From a phage, in sequence record NC_101837.1: a stretch of DNA of 64,000 bases; one strand, given 5' to 3'. The position numbers were made by a program, and so were the translations under genes. Under the pieces are notes generated by a model. The model made no database searches and was not told where the DNA came from. It saw only the letters and a list, made by a program, of their open reading frames with translations. Below, piece by piece: positions 1 through 6,382 of this stretch. Numbering within the stretch: the stretch's first letter is position 1; the number at the start of each line of letters is the position of its first letter.

Positions 1-302
1 GTATAACTATACCCATGACTGATTGCCATGTCAACATATTCCTGCACATGTTTTTCTTTTGTAAACGTATTACTTACCACGATACGGTCGTATCCCATAC
101 GCATCATATCTTCTACGTTATCTTTGCACCATTTTGCTGCGAGTGTTACTTTACTTGCATCCCAGTTGTAATTGCCGTCATCGTCATACCAGAACATGTC
201 GTTCTCAAAATGTGGATACAGACCCTCTAAAGATAGCGCATTTGCCAGTGTTGATTTGCCAGACCCTGGTAGACCACGCACGATATATAGCATTTTAGAC
301 AT
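1..302 (-). CDS. P-loop kinase, polynucleotide kinase-like N-terminal part (gene runs off window start)
   Basis: Reverse frame from ATG at 300-302 is open to position 1: MSKMLYIVRGLPGSGKSTLANAL...; Walker A GLPGSGKST resembles T4 Pnk kinase P-loop; GGAGGG upstream. Confidence 0.5.
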   Translation of the reverse strand, partial: MSKMLYIVRGLPGSGKSTLANALSLEGLYPHFENDMFWYDDDGNYNWDASKVTLAAKWCKDNVEDMMRMGYDRIVVSNTFTKEKHVQEYVDMAISHGYSY

Positions 303-402
303 AGTGACCCTCCGTTTTAATTTCAACGGTAGTATACCTAACTGTTTTGTTAATTTCAAGTGTTGACACTAGGTTATTTGTGTGGCAGGATAGACTGACA
401 AA

Positions 403-1338
403 ATGACAAATGAGGAACATATAATGAAGTATTTTAATGCAGACGACCTAGTTGACAAAGGTCTTGTAACCAGTAGGTATTACCCAGATCTCGGGTTAAA
501 GATCTATAAATATGCTAGAAAAGTATTTTACAACAATTTATGGCATTTGTCCCCTCGTTTACTGGAGTGCCGAGGCATTGTTGTAGGTAATGAAGGAAAT
601 GTTGTGGCATGGCCCTTCACAAAAGTGTTTAACTTGGGAGAAAACTCCACCAACCTGCCTGACAATAAGCTTGTGACTGCGGTAGAGAAAAAGAACGGAT
701 TCCTTGGTGTGGTATCATCTCATAAAGGTGACCTATTGTTCTCAACAACCGGGTCTCTTGATTCTCCATATTGTAACCTTGCAAAGGAAACCATCCAAGA
801 GCAATGTGGTAATTTAGATCTTATCAAGAAGGTTATGGGCAATGAAAACATGACATTCATGTTTGAAATTTGTCACCCTTCAGATCCGCATATTGTTCAA
901 GAAGACCATGGCGCATATTTGATAGGTTGCAGATATAATGATTCTGGAATAATGCTACCAGAAGCAGCTTTAGATGGGATTGCCAAATACCTTGGTGCAA
1001 AACGTCCTCACACTGTGCGTGAAATCCCGTTCAGCTATGCAAAAGAATTAGCCGCAGAAACAAGGGGCGAAGGGTATATGATCCGTAAGCCTTACTACCC
1101 TTATGACCTGCAGCTGAAGATCAAGTCTCCATACTACCTGGCACGGAAGGCCGTAATGAGGGGTAAAGCTTGGAAGATTTGGGATGATGATATCTTTAAA
1201 CGTGTTGACGAAGAGTTTTACGGCATGGTAAACTTCATTCGTAACAATTACACAGAAGATGTGTGGAACTGCCTCCTGGAGCAGGAACGCCGTGAGATAC
1301 TTGACTGCTATTTCCACAACGAGGACTATATGCAATGA
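403..1338 (+). CDS. RNA ligase-like nucleotidyltransferase (Rnl2-like)
   Basis: Ligase-family motifs in order: KKNG (I-like), EGYMIRKP (IV), LKIKSP (V); divergent from Pnk-like gene. Confidence 0.5.
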   Translation: MTNEEHIMKYFNADDLVDKGLVTSRYYPDLGLKIYKYARKVFYNNLWHLSPRLLECRGIVVGNEGNVVAWPFTKVFNLGENSTNLPDNKLVTAVEKKNGFLGVVSSHKGDLLFSTTGSLDSPYCNLAKETIQEQCGNLDLIKKVMGNENMTFMFEICHPSDPHIVQEDHGAYLIGCRYNDSGIMLPEAALDGIAKYLGAKRPHTVREIPFSYAKELAAETRGEGYMIRKPYYPYDLQLKIKSPYYLARKAVMRGKAWKIWDDDIFKRVDEEFYGMVNFIRNNYTEDVWNCLLEQERREILDCYFHNEDYMQ

Positions 1339-1685
1339 AGAAGTTGATTGTGTGGCTGGATGACTTGAGAGATCCGTCAAATTACGGGCTCCAAGACGCT
1401 GTTTGGCTAAAGAATTCCTCCGAGTTTATAGATTTTATTAACGATAATAGAAAGCTCTACAGACGCGTTTCTGAGTGGCATATGGACAACGACCTTGGAG
1501 AGGTATTCGAAGGGTACGATTGCCTATCTATGTTGGAGGAAAAGTTTGTATTTGGTAAGCCTCCTGTAGTTGACAACGTGAAGATTTTCGTGCATACTTC
1601 TAACCCATCAGCGGCTCGTAAATTCATGCTTGCGGCTGACTCGTTTAAAAAGTTTGGAATAGAGATTAAACAAAACATCTACTGA
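1335..1685 (+). CDS. hypothetical protein (116 aa)
   Basis: ATGA overlap with upstream stop; tiled ORF. Confidence 0.45.
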   Translation: MKKLIVWLDDLRDPSNYGLQDAVWLKNSSEFIDFINDNRKLYRRVSEWHMDNDLGEVFEGYDCLSMLEEKFVFGKPPVVDNVKIFVHTSNPSAARKFMLAADSFKKFGIEIKQNIY

Positions 1686-1693
1686 GGACACTT

Positions 1694-2455
1694 ATGCGAC
1701 GACTGATTGTTATCTCCGGTGCTGGTTTGAGTGCTGAATCTGGTATTCCCACTTTCCGATCTGGTAGCACTGCAATGTGGGAGAATTTCAGCATCGATGA
1801 GGTGTGCAACATCCACACCTTTGCCAAGAACTACTATAAGGTGCATGACTTTTACAATGCACGTCGTGTAGCTTTAGGCAGTGTTGAGCCTAACCTTGCA
1901 CATCTTCGGATCGCTGAGTGGTATTCCCGCTGGTCTGGTCGTGTGATCAACCTTACCACCAATGTAGATGATTTGCTGGAGCGTGCTGGTGTAAAACATG
2001 AAGATATTTTACATGTCCACGGGTATTTGCCAGAAATAGTCTATGAGGACGATGAAGGAAGTGACGTCATTAAGGACATTGGATACTCTGAGGTAGACGC
2101 AGGAAAGTATACCTGGGTTAAGCCTAATGTGGTGTTCTTCGGAGAAGTAGCTCCGAAGTATACAGACATGTATGACCTGTTGACTTCTCTTACGAGCAAT
2201 GATATGGTTATCCTTGTAGGGTGCTCCAACACAGTTATCAATTTTAACTGGGAGCTATTCCCTGCCTGCAATAAGGGAACAAAACTGCTGATCGTTAACA
2301 AATACGACTCACAGCAGCTAGGGGAGAATGGCATTTCACGTAGTGATATTTACCAATATGAGGATCGCGGCATCCCAGTTTGGTTTAACGGGGCGGTTGA
2401 TGCTTTCTCTGATAAAACATTCATTGAGACCGTAGAAAACTTTATGGAATTTTAA
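1694..2455 (+). CDS. Sir2-family NAD-dependent deacylase (CobB-like)
   Basis: GAGLSAESGIPTFR Rossmann motif, FYNARR, TTNVDDLLERAG, catalytic HVHG; zinc-ribbon cysteines not evident. Confidence 0.8.
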   Translation: MRRLIVISGAGLSAESGIPTFRSGSTAMWENFSIDEVCNIHTFAKNYYKVHDFYNARRVALGSVEPNLAHLRIAEWYSRWSGRVINLTTNVDDLLERAGVKHEDILHVHGYLPEIVYEDDEGSDVIKDIGYSEVDAGKYTWVKPNVVFFGEVAPKYTDMYDLLTSLTSNDMVILVGCSNTVINFNWELFPACNKGTKLLIVNKYDSQQLGENGISRSDIYQYEDRGIPVWFNGAVDAFSDKTFIETVENFMEF

Positions 2456-2468
2456 AAGGAGACCTTTA

Positions 2469-3182
2469 ATGCTGAATACCAAATTAATTGACAACCTGGA
2501 AAAACTGTCCCAACCTGAAAACTACCTTTGGTCTGCCAACTGGGTGGAGAACTGGAACCGTGTGGCAGCTAAAGTGAAAAAATCATACACACCGTTCGAA
2601 TTACAGCTTAGCTTCATTGAGGAAGAGTTCAATGAAGTTTTGGAAGAGCTGGAGAAAGGTGATGGTGGAGATCACCTGCTAAAAGAGGCCTGCGATCTTC
2701 ACGTTGTCACAAGTTATGCCACTTATCTTGTTAATGACAATCACGAAAAGTGGTCAAGCCTGTTTGATAATCCACAGGGTCTTAAGTTCAAGATCGGTGA
2801 GTTCTATGATACCCTGATCGCTGCGAAAAACACACCTAAGCAAAGAGCGTCAGCTTACCGCTTAGCGGAGTTGTCAACAGCTTTGCTGTTCCAGCTTCGC
2901 GGCGATGTGTGCGGGATGATGCGTAAGGTTCTCAAATCGAATGACAGTAAGTTTGCACGGGTCAACCATCTACGGTATTCACACGGTGCCGGTGCAGATA
3001 TGCCTGCTGAACAACTCATCGAGTTGGAGATTAAAGATCTTGAGCGACGCTTTGATGGTAGATATGAAGGTTTTGTTGCTAAGGAAGAGTTCTACAACGG
3101 TAATAAAGTTATCATATTCCTTGACAGTAAAGGTAAGATCATGAAGCCTTCGAGCTTCAAGGATGTAACAGAGTATATTTAA
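2469..3182 (+). CDS. hypothetical protein, possibly MazG-like NTP pyrophosphohydrolase
   Basis: Acidic EEEFNEVLEELEKGDGGDHLLKEA segment resembles MazG metal-binding helix; weak. Confidence 0.4.
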   Translation: MLNTKLIDNLEKLSQPENYLWSANWVENWNRVAAKVKKSYTPFELQLSFIEEEFNEVLEELEKGDGGDHLLKEACDLHVVTSYATYLVNDNHEKWSSLFDNPQGLKFKIGEFYDTLIAAKNTPKQRASAYRLAELSTALLFQLRGDVCGMMRKVLKSNDSKFARVNHLRYSHGAGADMPAEQLIELEIKDLERRFDGRYEGFVAKEEFYNGNKVIIFLDSKGKIMKPSSFKDVTEYI

Positions 3183-3188
3183 CAACAT

Positions 3189-3212
3189 AGCCGGGATTAC
3201 CCGGCTTTACTT
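3189..3212 (+). terminator. putative intrinsic terminator
   Basis: Stem AGCCGGG/CCCGGCT with ATTA loop followed by T-rich run, just after stop at 3182. Confidence 0.55.
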
Positions 3213-3224
3213 GTTGTGGAAAGT

Positions 3225-3554
3225 ATGCAAGTGAGGCAGATAGTTATGTACAAGCACTCTAGAGATCTTGAAAACGATGCTGTGTTTGGGGATCAGATGA
3301 AAGAGTTGGTTAAACTCATAGGCAGGATAGAGGATAAGTTTGACACTAAGATCTACATCGACAGCAAAGTCTTCAACCACAAAATATGGACAAATCTGTG
3401 TGTTGGACTACATGGAGATAAAGATGTGGTAAATTTAGTTGTAATTAAGTTCATAGTGTGGCAGAATAAAACTATAAATTATTACGATCCACACCTGCTT
3501 GTTTACCCGATAAAAGACCTATTAGATAAGGAGGACTGCAATGCCGTTATTTAA
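3225..3554 (+). CDS. hypothetical protein
   Basis: Track ORF 3216..3554; first ATG at 3225 after terminator. Confidence 0.4.
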   Translation: MQVRQIVMYKHSRDLENDAVFGDQMKELVKLIGRIEDKFDTKIYIDSKVFNHKIWTNLCVGLHGDKDVVNLVVIKFIVWQNKTINYYDPHLLVYPIKDLLDKEDCNAVI

Positions 3555-3810
3555 TCTTGCTAAACCTGTAGAAGCACACCAGTTTGACGGAAGCTCTTCA
3601 TCAGTATCTGATCTGCAACGGTGGATTGATACAGGTGTGTTTACATCGTCACCTGTTCGGACCAGAGATCTTCGTCGCATGTGTGAGCTTGTAGAGCCGT
3701 TTGGTAACCTAGTCTTGTACCAGGGAGATTGGTTAGTTGACTTTATGGGAGACTGGTTGGTAATGAGTAAAGAAGAGATGTTTAAAATTTTTAAGGAAGA
3801 GGCCGAGTAA
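3541..3810 (+). CDS. hypothetical protein (89 aa)
   Basis: Tiled ORF, start overlaps upstream end. Confidence 0.4.
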   Translation: MPLFNLAKPVEAHQFDGSSSSVSDLQRWIDTGVFTSSPVRTRDLRRMCELVEPFGNLVLYQGDWLVDFMGDWLVMSKEEMFKIFKEEAE

Positions 3811-5093
3811 TGCATCAAATCAAAACAACACTGTACGCACTGAATAAAGATGGCAGCTACCAACAGTGGAAAGTATTCACGGATGGTGATAAGGTTATCG
3901 TAGAGTTTGGCAAGCTTGATGGTAAACTGCAATACAAAGAGACGATCTGCACACCTAAGAACGTTGGTCGCGCCAATGAAACTACAGCTGAGCAACAGGC
4001 CGAGCTGGAAGCGATCAGTAAGTGGGAAAAACAGGTCCGACTTGGGTACGTGGAGAGTATGGAAGATTGTGAGCAAGGTGTTGATCTTCTACCCATGTTG
4101 GTGCATGACTACCTGAAGCGTGGCAAGGCACTTAAATTACCTTGCTGGATCTTGCGTAAGTTAGATGGCCTTCGTCTACTTGTTGTTTTCCAGAATGGTG
4201 AGCCTAAATTTATTTCCCGTGGTAATAAGTCCTACCCTATTCAAGGAAAGCTTCTGGAGCAACTTCGCTCTTTCCACCTAACCACCGGGATTAAACAGCT
4301 CGACGGAGAGCTCTATATTCATGGTCTTCCTCTGCAGAAAATAGTGTCTCTTGCTAAACGGTGGCGCACACAGGAAGAAATTCAGGCCGAGATCGATAAA
4401 GACTACAAGGCAGATAAAAAACGCCGTCAGGCTGCGATTAAGGCAGGTTTAGCAACATACAAAAACTTCAACAAGATGGACATTCCTGTTGATGTTGAGC
4501 CTGTTCGTGATGATTTGCGTTACGGAGGGTACTGCAGCTACGACTTGGAGTATCATATTTTCGATATTCCTAGCGATAAGGTGTGGTGGGATCCTGAAAC
4601 AGAGTCTGGACGCTGTAAGGATCTTATGGAGGCAAATGGTGCTATTGCTTCTTTGATGCTTGATCATATTAAGGTTGTTGATGCAGAGCTTGCATACACA
4701 GTTGATCGGTGCGAAGAGTCTGTTGGTATATTTATGTCTGAGGGATATGAAGGTACCATTATGCGTAACTTCTGTGGTAAATATGAGTATGGTCAGCGAA
4801 CATCTGAAGCATTGAAATGGAAAAAGTTCAACGACGCAGAGGTGAAAGTTATTGACGTTGAGAAAGATAAGAATGATGAAGGTGTTCTTATCTGTGTTGA
4901 CAAGGAAGGTGTTGTTGTTAAAATGAAGATGAAAGGCACGCACGAGGAGCGTAGCTATGACAGGATGCAGGAAATGATCGGCAAGTTTGTCACCTTCAAA
5001 TATCAAGCAAGGACAGAAGACAACAACTACCAATTCCCTGTCGGTATCTGCGTCCGAAATGTTAACCCAGACACTTGGGAGGTGCTGGAATGA
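3810..5093 (+). CDS. ATP-dependent DNA ligase
   Basis: Motif I RKLDGLRLL (KxDG), motif IV EGYEGTIMR, motif V KWKKF; 427 aa. Confidence 0.8.
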   Translation: MHQIKTTLYALNKDGSYQQWKVFTDGDKVIVEFGKLDGKLQYKETICTPKNVGRANETTAEQQAELEAISKWEKQVRLGYVESMEDCEQGVDLLPMLVHDYLKRGKALKLPCWILRKLDGLRLLVVFQNGEPKFISRGNKSYPIQGKLLEQLRSFHLTTGIKQLDGELYIHGLPLQKIVSLAKRWRTQEEIQAEIDKDYKADKKRRQAAIKAGLATYKNFNKMDIPVDVEPVRDDLRYGGYCSYDLEYHIFDIPSDKVWWDPETESGRCKDLMEANGAIASLMLDHIKVVDAELAYTVDRCEESVGIFMSEGYEGTIMRNFCGKYEYGQRTSEALKWKKFNDAEVKVIDVEKDKNDEGVLICVDKEGVVVKMKMKGTHEERSYDRMQEMIGKFVTFKYQARTEDNNYQFPVGICVRNVNPDTWEVLE

Positions 5094-5217: not shown

Positions 5218-5706
5218 ATGAAACTTGATAAAAATGTTCAACGAAAAGCTTTCTTGGATATGATCGCATATTCGGAAGGCACAGATAATGGTAGACAACC
5301 TACCAAGGATCGGGGGTACGATGTCATAGTCGGAGGCAAGCTGTTCAGCGATTACAGCAAGCATCCCGGTGTTTACGTTAAGCTAAATGCTAAGCTTACC
5401 TCCTCCGCTGCTGGGCGTTACCAGGTTTTGGAGAAGTTTGCTAAACACTACATGAAACAGTTAGGATTACCAGATTTTGGCCCTGACAGTCAGGACAAGA
5501 TTGCGTTGCAACTGATCCGTGAGTGCAAGGCTCTCGCCGACATTGATGAAGGGCGTATTCATCAGGCCATTTATAAATGCCGCAGCCGCTGGGCAAGCTT
5601 CCCACCACCGCCAGGGGCTGGAAAGCTGTACAATCAGCGAGCAGAAAGTATAGACAAGATGCTGGAGATCTTTAAGAAGGCAGGTGGAGTTGTTACAGAT
5701 GAGTAA
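5218..5706 (+). CDS. endolysin, lambda R-like lytic transglycosylase
   Basis: Near-collinear similarity to lambda R: QRKAFLDMIAYSEGTDNGRQ...GYDVIVGG...AGRYQ...RWASFP. Confidence 0.85.
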   Translation: MKLDKNVQRKAFLDMIAYSEGTDNGRQPTKDRGYDVIVGGKLFSDYSKHPGVYVKLNAKLTSSAAGRYQVLEKFAKHYMKQLGLPDFGPDSQDKIALQLIRECKALADIDEGRIHQAIYKCRSRWASFPPPPGAGKLYNQRAESIDKMLEIFKKAGGVVTDE

Positions 5707-6382
5707 CGGGATTGACTGGTGGAGTGTCTTTAGATACGATACAGGCACTGGAAGGTTGTTTTGGAAGTCCCCACCAAAAAACAAACCTCAACTGATGGGA
5801 AAGGAGGCTGGATGTACTAACATGGACGGGTACAGGGATATAATCTATCGCGGCGTGCATTACTACAGGCATAGATTGGTGTGGGAGATGCATTATGGAC
5901 CAATTCCAGAAGGGTACGAAGTTGATCACATAAAGCCACTTTTCTATTCCGATGGTGTTGCTGATGACAGGATAGAAAACCTACAACTGTTAACACCAGA
6001 AGAAAACGCAAAAAAGGCGGCAGATGACGGATGCCTGGCACGCAAGATACCTAAATCTAACACTGGACACTTGGGTGTATATTTTCATGCTAGAACTGGA
6101 AGGTATGCTGCTTTTGGTAAGGTAGGTCATTACTATAAGAAAGACCTAGGAGAATACGATACCTTAGAAGAGGCCCTTGCTGCTCAAAAGTCTTTTGAAA
6201 GTGGCACGTTTGTCAGGGAATATCGTGGACAGCCTTTAGGGAGGGATAAATCTAGAGGTGTCAGATTTGAAGCAGATAGGGGCAAATGGAAAGTAACTTT
6301 CAGAGGAAAAACGCTAGGCAGGTTTGACACCAAAGAGTCTGCTGAAGCGTGTTACGCAAAGGCTCTTGCTGAAAGATTGTAA
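5699..6382 (+). CDS. HNH homing endonuclease with AP2 DNA-binding repeats
   Basis: GYEVDHIKPLF...NLQLLTPEENAKKA HNH core; two AP2-like repeats (GVYFHARTGRYAAFGKV; GVRFEADRGKWKVTFRG); track start GTG 5684, ATG at 5699. Confidence 0.75.
   Translation: MSNGIDWWSVFRYDTGTGRLFWKSPPKNKPQLMGKEAGCTNMDGYRDIIYRGVHYYRHRLVWEMHYGPIPEGYEVDHIKPLFYSDGVADDRIENLQLLTPEENAKKAADDGCLARKIPKSNTGHLGVYFHARTGRYAAFGKVGHYYKKDLGEYDTLEEALAAQKSFESGTFVREYRGQPLGRDKSRGVRFEADRGKWKVTFRGKTLGRFDTKESAEACYAKALAERL

Follow-up and report, generated by a model that had tools for sequence, protein, structure and literature searches.

A kinase, RNA ligase, cREC and zinc-less sirtuin cassette at the left end of an rV5-like phage sequence, a candidate RNA-repair unit

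The subject of this analysis is the left end of a stretch of phage DNA of 64,000 nucleotides (sequence record NC_101837.1), the whole of which is referred to here as the window. Within its first 3,182 positions a kinase gene on the minus strand is arranged divergently from four genes on the plus strand, which code for an RNA ligase, a cREC protein, a sirtuin and a MazG-like protein. All open reading frames (ORFs) that a first-pass annotation of the sequence had listed for this left-end module are present at their positions, and the length of the ORFs, the strong family matches and the conservation in more than 100 phage genomes indicate that the genes are not a chance pattern. Bases 1–3600 gave 120 matches to phage records at 90–99% identity, the top match being Escherichia phage JeffSchatz (BASEL Bas55, 98.5% identity), and all good matches were rV5-like Vequintavirus genomes; published genomes of this genus are 97–98.5% identical to the window. 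The records of these relatives already name a polynucleotide kinase, an RNA ligase, a hypothetical protein and a Sir2 deacetylase in the region, and some also name a nucleotide pyrophosphohydrolase and a "cyclic-phosphate processing domain-containing protein". The same neighborhood was reported for "Escherichia phage V5 and Proteus phage Mydo" (Iyer, Burroughs, Anantharaman and Aravind 2022, Viruses 14:1977; PMC9503650, section 3.7.3). The cassette is therefore already known: it has been reported for this very group of phages and recurs in more than 100 nearly identical genomes. It is ordinary for this heavily sampled genus. Its features are as follows.

1–302, minus strand: P-loop polynucleotide-kinase-like protein, N-terminal 100 codons of 136 residues (AAA_33 match); the gene is truncated by the left window edge.
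303–402, no strand assigned: divergent intergenic region of 100 base pairs (bp) between the kinase and ligase genes, with a leftward sigma-70-like promoter from 359 to 331 (TTGAAA-17-TATACT).
403–1338, plus strand: T4 Rnl1-family ATP-dependent RNA ligase, 311 residues (PF09511, phrog_562, T4 Rnl1 structure match).
1335–1685, plus strand: cREC (cyclic-phosphate-processing receiver-like) domain protein, 116 residues (PF20274).
1694–2455, plus strand: zinc-less class-III-like sirtuin, 253 residues (PF02146, CobB structure and fold match).
2469–3182, plus strand: probable member of the MazG/PRA-PH superfamily (all-alpha, NTP pyrophosphohydrolase-like), 237 residues with a C-terminal beta-hairpin extension (phrog_671, orthologue Pfam matches).
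3189–3206, plus strand: intrinsic-terminator-like GC-rich hairpin, a 7-bp stem with six GC pairs followed by a T-rich tail.

The ligase, cREC, sirtuin and MazG-like genes form one tightly packed operon (403–3182) that is closed by the hairpin terminator. The start of the cREC gene overlaps the ligase stop by 4 nucleotides; the two junctions after it leave gaps of 8 and 13 nucleotides. The hairpin has a folding energy of −17.6 kcal/mol (z −4.2), none of 200 shuffled sequences was as stable, and ARNold annotates the site as a terminator in phage Gotham. The leftward promoter on the minus strand lies at a site that is also annotated as a promoter in phage Gotham. Promoter-like sites overall were not enriched (14 found, 11 ± 3 expected), and no convincing plus-strand sigma-70 promoter was found upstream of the ligase. 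Two divergent transcription units would start from the region between the kinase and the ligase.

The minus-strand gene ending at 302, whose translation begins MSKMLYIVRGLPGSGKST..., was matched by Pfam to AAA_33 with an E-value of 4.3e-9 for the fragment and 1e-10 for a full-length orthologue of 136 residues. Among PHROG families it matched phrog_2071 (3e-58) and phrog_505, "polynucleotide kinase" (5e-10). Residues invariant across five phage lineages include the Walker A motif GxxGxGK (GLPGSGKST, with K16), D35 and a C-terminal ENRHGN. The matches to AAA_33 and phrog_505 bear out the earlier description of a Pnk-like P-loop kinase, for the kinase domain only: a domain search with the full-length orthologue gave no second domain, and a fused HAD (DxDxT) 3'-phosphatase was not found. 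Public annotations often call the 136-residue protein "3'-phosphatase, 5'-polynucleotide kinase" despite the lack of a phosphatase domain. A single-sequence search of the PDB with the kinase returned nothing useful. In relatives, a separate calcineurin-like phosphoesterase of 184 residues follows the kinase at a position just past the window edge (locus L002, 4171–4725; PF12850/PF00149), and further to the left lie a helix-turn-helix protein, small ORFs and a cluster of tRNA genes. This cluster is 3.5 kb left of the kinase in the relatives and was counted in favor of an RNA-repair reading; a search for tRNA genes in the window found none.

The ligase matched PF09511 (RNA_lig_T4_1) with an E-value of 1e-14 over the whole profile (positions 1–227 of 227), and phrog_562, the PHROG family of T4 RnlA, at 2.8e-66. 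A single-sequence PDB search gave nothing useful for the ligase; a profile built from five orthologues did find the T4 Rnl1 structures 2c5u/9do4 (2.5e-13). The motifs K96-K-N-G (motif I), E155, E223-G224 and K239-I-K241 are invariant in five lineages, and in the profile alignment motifs I, III, IV and V line up with their T4 Rnl1 counterparts. The enzyme had been labeled Rnl2-like, which was wrong. It is of the Rnl1 type by both the Pfam and the T4 Rnl1 (2c5u) matches, and no match to Rnl2 was obtained: RNA_lig_T4_1 was the only Pfam family at E ≤ 0.1, and the PDB profile hits up to an E-value of 10 included no Rnl2 chain. The score against the NCBIfam equivalog TIGR02308 was 38.7 bits for a cut-off of 242. 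The alignment with T4 Rnl1 ends near T4 residue 270, the lengths being 311 residues here and 374 in T4, and the C-terminal tRNA-specificity domain of T4 is not evident. Because it scores far below the equivalog cut-off and has a shorter C-terminus, the protein is a distant member of the Rnl1 family and not an orthologue of T4 RnlA. Two start codons are candidates, ATG 403 (the first ATG) and ATG 424, which stands behind a GAGG Shine-Dalgarno sequence at 412–415; the latter is more likely to be the true start. Other annotators place the start of the ligase at the ATG that corresponds to position 421, as in phage Gotham, and this codon is ATA in the window.

The 116-residue gene at 1335–1685 had been left unassigned. 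It can now be assigned to the cREC domain, as it matched PF20274 (cREC_REC) at 4.7e-15, with 56.5 bits for a gathering cut-off of 27. Its invariant residues are D9, D10 and R12, D51 and D53, and H87, S89, N90 and P91, of which the acidic ones are receiver-like. No histidine kinase was seen near cREC in the loci examined; in many of them it adjoins RnlA or the metallophosphoesterase (MPE) instead. Among the closest full-length cREC loci of IMG/VR, cREC lies within 2.7 kb of RnlA in eight of 11 and of the MPE in all 11. In phi92-like contigs cREC is inside the ligase cluster and Sir2 is about 30 kb away. cREC thus follows the ligase/phosphoesterase cluster rather than Sir2. The group that described the neighborhood had defined the domain in a 2021 paper on jumbo phages (PMC7824862), with a cyclic-phosphate esterase activity as the prediction. 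The original proposal had it process cyclic ADP-ribose (ADPr) or cyclic phosphates, and its fusions to Nudix are frequent (PMC7824862; PMC9503650).

The sirtuin matched PF02146 at 3e-27, and its best solved relatives are E. coli CobB (1s5p, 1.5e-21) and human SIRT5. It retains GAGLSAESGIPTFR, N90 and D92, H109 (of HVHG) and FGE. Across 32 diverse homologues that are 53–62% identical to the query, G9-A-G, S16, F21 and R22, N90, D92, H109, F148-F149-x-E151 and S178 are invariant. The AlphaFold2 model has a predicted local distance difference test score (pLDDT) of 90.5, and Foldseek placed it nearest to CobB (E 1e-18, TM 0.73–0.83), then SIRT5 and archaeal Sir2. Residues 111–146, which align to the cysteine-rich zinc module of CobB, contain no cysteine, and the four-cysteine zinc site is therefore missing; the equivalent segment is still modeled as three beta-strands with a pLDDT of about 96. 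The initial view of this protein, a CobB-type sirtuin with intact NAD motifs and a catalytic HVHG and without zinc cysteines, agrees with all of these results.

Loss of the zinc site is a property of the clade. In 90 of 91 parsable homologues (from 121 sequences) the small-domain segment has at most one cysteine. Two further substitutions mark the clade: the Gln of TQN(I/V)D, almost universal elsewhere, is Thr, and GCSNxVINFNW stands where CobB has GTSGHVY, which is the start of the motif GTSxxVYPAA, the substrate loop, of other sirtuins. The 150 nearest cluster representatives, drawn from 1.84 billion proteins, comprise 35 of the Thr type with two or fewer cysteines, 81 of the Gln type with three or more, and 20 mixed, so the Thr substitution is coupled to cysteine loss; the catalytic His is kept in 149 of the 150. 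Against the best NCBIfam CobB model (NF001753) the sirtuin scored 122.9 bits for a cut-off of 243, and the PADLOC models of defense Sir2 proteins gave a single insignificant match (E 0.0064, 13.8 bits). It is thus a phage-type sirtuin distinct from both, neither a CobB orthologue nor a defense NADase, and probably competent in catalysis. The protein consists of a single domain, without a sensor domain, and the operon has no partner of the ThsA, DSR1/2, SIR2-HerA or SPARSA systems. No fusions to the modeled RNA-repair or NAD-metabolism domains were found among the 150 representatives; ten long proteins among them are of the zinc and Gln type, and their extra regions match no RNA-repair or NAD-metabolism query. 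One Sir2 homologue, in Klebsiella phage vB_Kpn_3, is labeled "tail assembly protein".

The last gene of the operon had been called MazG-like, and this probably holds at the level of the superfamily. The protein in the window itself does not match PRA-PH significantly (E 0.1, 13.5 bits for a cut-off of 21.3). All 11 of its orthologues match PRA-PH PF01503 (best 4.8e-6) and nine of the 11 match MazG PF03819, and the protein matches phrog_671, "nucleotide pyrophosphohydrolase", at 1.9e-21. Residues E51–E53, E56, E59, E73 and D76 (EEExxE...ExxD) and N158-x-x-K161 are invariant. The AlphaFold2 model is of low confidence (pLDDT 65), and the only family that recurs among the non-significant Foldseek matches is that of the dimeric dUTPases, members of the all-alpha superfamily that also contains MazG; for both reasons the assignment leans on the Pfam matches of the orthologues. 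Searches of the PDB with the single sequence and with a profile gave nothing useful.

Gene linkage was examined in annotated loci from nine phages and in 80 IMG/VR loci found with the Sir2 profile, the ORFs of which were searched with profiles grown from the cassette proteins. By tblastn, the sirtuin is present in 1023 phage records and the ligase in 812. In 31 T5-like loci among the 86 Sir2 loci, a HAD "Swiss-army-knife RNA repair" phosphatase (HAD-SAK) is encoded within about 1 kb (3 kb in one); two of these loci were checked and matched Pfam HAD_SAK_2 at 7e-18 and 9e-17. A further 12 of the 86 carry RnlA, the kinase, the MPE and MazG within about 4 kb, with cREC as well in nine, and the identity of their Sir2 proteins to that of the window goes from 94% down to 44%. 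RnlA lies within 2.7 kb of Sir2 in two jumbo-phage contigs, and in one jumbo phage Sir2, a Nudt16-like Nudix protein and cREC stand in a row. The published associations are thus reproduced, as our own neighborhood scans recover the pairing of Sir2 with HAD-SAK in T5-like phages, that of Sir2 with the RnlA cluster in rV5/Mydo-like phages, and the Sir2-Nudix-cREC row of the jumbo phage.

The kinase, the MPE and RnlA are adjacent in five lineages (rV5-like, Mydo-like, phi92-like, Pakpunavirus and Vibrio Thalassavirus), which includes two, Pakpunavirus and Vibrio Thalassavirus, where the fetched ligase locus has no Sir2. The 737-residue family phrog_8238, to which the kinase aligns at the N-terminus and the ligase at the C-terminus, is consistent with fused kinase-ligase proteins. 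These three genes are the robust core of the cassette, a heal-and-seal triad, and cREC belongs with them. Sir2 has RNA-end phosphoesterase genes as neighbors in several phage groups that are unrelated, and its link to this ligase is not obligatory. Where Sir2 has no modeled partner (phi92-like and several jumbo phages), Pfam searches of its immediate neighbors gave nothing informative except one gene, located directly after the Sir2 homologue of a jumbo-phage contig (L073, 10713–11198), that is nucleoside 2-deoxyribosyltransferase-like (PF15891, 1.2e-33).

Genes for PRPP synthetase and nicotinamide phosphoribosyltransferase (NAMPT) were observed 2–8 kb from the RnlA/kinase/phosphoesterase cluster in Mydo-like, phi92-like, Pakpunavirus and Vibrio Thalassavirus genomes (L003, 1–2133; L010, 7355–10866; L011, 8738–11744; IMG/VR loci L034–L063 and L094–L104), with a Macro-domain gene between the two in two of these lineages. 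No such NAD salvage genes are near the rV5-type locus (L013, L093). In the ligase loci that lack Sir2 (Pakpunavirus, Thalassavirus) no KptA/Tpt1 gene takes its place among the ORFs scanned, where Macro, PRPP synthetase and NAMPT were the only ones found. The proximity may hint at a link of NAD or ADPr to RNA repair that is independent of Sir2.

Several known systems may be compared with the cassette. The T4 Pnkp and Rnl1 pair, which counters the PrrC anticodon nuclease, shares with it a phage 5'-kinase (here with Walker A and Asp35), 3'-end healing and an Rnl1-family ligase. It differs in that the kinase here is a stand-alone protein of 136 residues with no fused HAD/DxDxT domain, the ends would be healed by a separate metallophosphoesterase, and cREC, Sir2 and MazG are additional. 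The T4-like Pnk plus Rnl repair logic suggested at first pass fits the adjacency of kinase, metallophosphoesterase and Rnl1-type ligase in the five lineages. The kinase-metallophosphoesterase-ligase Pnkp of Clostridium thermocellum (CthPnkp), a bacterial RNA-repair enzyme, has the three chemistries that are predicted for the cassette, including a calcineurin-type phosphoesterase; in the phage these are on three separate polypeptides, the ligase is of the Rnl1 type, and no Hen1 methyltransferase partner was seen. Activity as a 2',3'-cyclic phosphodiesterase is described for CthPnkp and for lambda phosphatase (PMC2190708). The fungal and plant tRNA-splicing pathway of Trl1 and Tpt1 differs in that the cyclic phosphodiesterase would be cREC and not a 2H domain, the NAD+ enzyme has the sirtuin fold and not the Tpt1/KptA (ART) fold, and the ligase profile matches T4 Rnl1 and no Trl1 structure. 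The ART-fold PTS_2-RNA domain of Tpt1/KptA does not occur in the cassette, and any likeness would be one of functional analogy. NARP3 (PMC13464706) was checked and is unrelated to the cassette.

The closest published counterpart is the type 2 sirtuin neighborhood of PMC9503650, which comprises a T4-like tRNA ligase, cREC, a nucleotide kinase, a sirtuin, a MazG pyrophosphatase and a calcineurin-like phosphoesterase. It comes from the same phage group, has the same gene set and differs in nothing substantive; the sirtuin of the window is 93% identical to that of phage V5. In the hypothesis of its authors, the sirtuin would take the part of KptA/Tpt1 and remove the 2'-phosphates that arise from RNA ends with a 2',3'-cyclic phosphate, and the associated phosphoesterases would serve either to open that cyclic phosphate or to deal with the ADPr>P that results (PMC9503650). 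The NAD/RNA-centered module that the first-pass annotation had suggested matches this comparative-genomics prediction. The paper is silent on the missing zinc site. The details added here are modest: the absence of the zinc site throughout the clade, in step with the Gln-to-Thr change, the terminator-bounded operon of four genes, the tracking of the ligase cluster by cREC, and the lack of this ligase in most T5-like phages with Sir2.

Homology, intact motifs and gene linkage lead us to the reading that the heal-and-seal core quite probably repairs breaks in RNA, which would most plausibly be tRNA. Such broken ends would come from metal-independent host RNases, for example anticodon nucleases. 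The leftward unit, with the polynucleotide 5'-kinase and the calcineurin-type phosphoesterase beyond the window, would heal 5'-OH and 2',3'-cyclic-phosphate ends; sealing would then fall to the Rnl1-type ligase, via a Lys96-AMP intermediate. As a predicted metal-independent cyclic phosphodiesterase, cREC would share in end healing; the most likely role of cREC, the sirtuin and the MazG-like enzyme together would be that of an NAD+-linked accessory branch of end processing. To the wider reading, in which the cassette as a whole is an RNA-repair unit that includes the sirtuin branch, we incline without holding it firmly. What the results above show are the gene identities, motif conservation, operon structure and recurrent linkage; all of the enzymatic activities are inferred, and a role of the cassette against host defense is likewise putative.

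The role of the sirtuin within such a unit is the main question. The reactions of Tpt1 and of sirtuins are parallel: both begin with the attack of a substrate oxygen on C1'' of NAD+ and go on with an attack of the ribose 2''-OH on the adduct so formed. Because of this parallel chemistry and the recurrent phosphoesterase neighbors, a Tpt1-like RNA 2'-phosphotransferase is the function we would favor for it within the repair unit, as a tentative assignment that may well be wrong. Less likely again is the proposal in its full form, an idea in print since 2022. The zinc-less, Thr-for-Gln clade, with members in over 1000 phage genomes, would then consist not of protein deacylases but of NAD+-dependent RNA 2'-phosphotransferases or phosphate removers, sirtuin-fold analogues of Tpt1/KptA; cREC would be a new metal-independent cyclic phosphodiesterase; and together they would equip enterobacterial phages for a yeast-like, NAD-consuming tRNA repair against anticodon nucleases.

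A number of points weigh against the RNA-repair reading with its sirtuin branch. A search of the literature found no experimental work on any component of the cassette. T4 Rnl1, to which the ligase is closest, seals 2'-OH/3'-OH ends in a pathway that needs no NAD step, and the metallophosphoesterase could remove both phosphates, so that no 2'-phosphate need remain. There were no fungal Trl1 structures among the PDB matches of the ligase profile. CobB and SIRT5, which the sirtuin resembles most, are protein deacylases, and the class III YxxR motif (Y54, R57), which binds succinyl-lysine in the acidic-acyl pocket, is invariant in the 32 homologues aligned. With respect to linkage, 37 of the 86 Sir2 loci have none of the modeled partners; in phi92-like phages Sir2 is tens of kb from the ligase/cREC cluster (L046 and L101, on one contig); and at least 276 Salmonella phage records carry the sirtuin without an RnlA-type ligase (290 records compared with 14). 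In the myoviruses of 140–150 kb part of the linkage may reflect inherited gene order and not shared function, because MazG and the ATP-dependent DNA ligase share the same syntenic block. The sirtuin clade is also acidic (isoelectric point 4.6–6.0), which is weak evidence since the ligase is acidic too. Protein charge was tried as a discriminator between the hypotheses and does not separate them.

In a rival explanation the kinase, phosphoesterase, ligase and perhaps cREC are on their own a full repair set in the style of T4 or CthPnkp, the sirtuin is a conventional class III lysine deacylase (deacetylase/desuccinylase, like CobB) that re-tunes host or phage proteins during infection, MazG does separate nucleotide house-cleaning, and all that these two share with the repair genes is an early-gene block. 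The best sequence and fold matches would then be taken at face value, along with the invariance of YxxR, the catalytic His and the NAD-binding residues and the small-domain beta-sheet that is retained at high confidence in the prediction. Such a division of labor would also suit the phages in which Sir2 is free of the ligase, that is, most of the T5-like ones, which lack an RnlA-type ligase, and the phi92-like ones with their distant clusters, and it is in line with the T4 Rnl1-type pathway and its independence of NAD. However, a deacylase of the usual kind would not be expected to have lost the zinc cysteines, the Gln of TQN(I/V)D and the GTSxxVYPAA loop or to fall so far under the NCBIfam CobB cut-off, and a CobB is already supplied by the host. 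It is also hard to explain why its nearest neighbors are RNA-end phosphoesterases (HAD-SAK, cREC, Nudix, MPE) in at least three unrelated phage groups. We consider this the main rival, about as likely as the Tpt1-like role of the sirtuin.

An improbable alternative is that the sirtuin, cREC and the MazG-like protein act on small molecules derived from NAD+ or ADPr, destroying or recycling ADPr-based immune signals or NAD breakdown products against Thoeris- or TIR/SIR2-type defenses. It draws on the original proposal for cREC, that of processing cyclic ADPr or cyclic phosphates, and its frequent Nudix fusions (PMC7824862; PMC9503650), on the Sir2-Nudix-cREC row of one jumbo phage, on the PRPP synthetase, Macro and NAMPT genes near the ligase cluster in several lineages, and on the nucleoside 2-deoxyribosyltransferase-like gene that adjoins Sir2 in one jumbo-phage locus. 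Yet cleavage of such signals is not known for any sirtuin, cREC stays with the RnlA/MPE cluster in genomes that have Sir2 at another place, and the rV5-type locus itself is without nearby NAD salvage genes. The analogy with NAD-depleting defense Sir2 proteins that was drawn at first pass, by which the phage would shut off its host or exclude superinfection with the sirtuin as an NAD+-depleting or ADP-ribosylating toxin, has nothing more in its favor than that many Sir2-domain proteins of phage-host conflict are NADases, and this most improbable role was rejected on the PADLOC result and on the closest sequence and fold matches, which are to the class III deacylases CobB and SIRT5, the single-domain, unfused architecture and the NAD+ salvage genes near the cluster in related phages, which argue for conservation of NAD+, pointing the same way.

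A few other features of the window and of its relatives may be recorded. Two small plus-strand ORFs (3216–3554 and 3541–3810) lie between the terminator and the gene for an ATP-dependent DNA ligase (3810–5093); they have no Pfam match and belong to phage-only PHROG families with homologues in the Mydo cluster. Further downstream, a plus-strand ORF (5684–6382) overlaps the end of the endolysin gene (5218–5706); it has an HNH_3 domain (3.8e-14) and, below threshold, a match of the AP2 type. It is absent from the same position in JeffSchatz, and an HNH gene of a different length is found there in phage 241Ecol014PP; the ORF looks like a mobile homing endonuclease. The GC skew of the window turns from positive to negative near 38 kb, which fits a change in the predominant gene orientation. 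Finally, 18–25 GenBank records named "Campylobacter phage", with Campylobacter jejuni as the stated host, are 93–97% identical to the E. coli rV5-like region (among them MG065646, MG065655, MG065656, MG065662 and MG065666). The stated hosts are probably mistaken; alternatively, contaminating E. coli phages were isolated.

In summary, the left end of the window carries a conserved cassette in which a kinase and an Rnl1-type ligase form a putative RNA-repair core with a phosphoesterase beyond the window edge, accompanied by cREC, a zinc-less sirtuin and a MazG-like protein. Because the cassette occurs in available BASEL phages, such as Bas55 JeffSchatz, the activity of the sirtuin is directly testable. 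If the published hypothesis is true, sirtuins would gain a new class of substrate, the phosphate ends of RNA, and phages would have a second, NAD-dependent strategy of tRNA repair beside the T4 paradigm.

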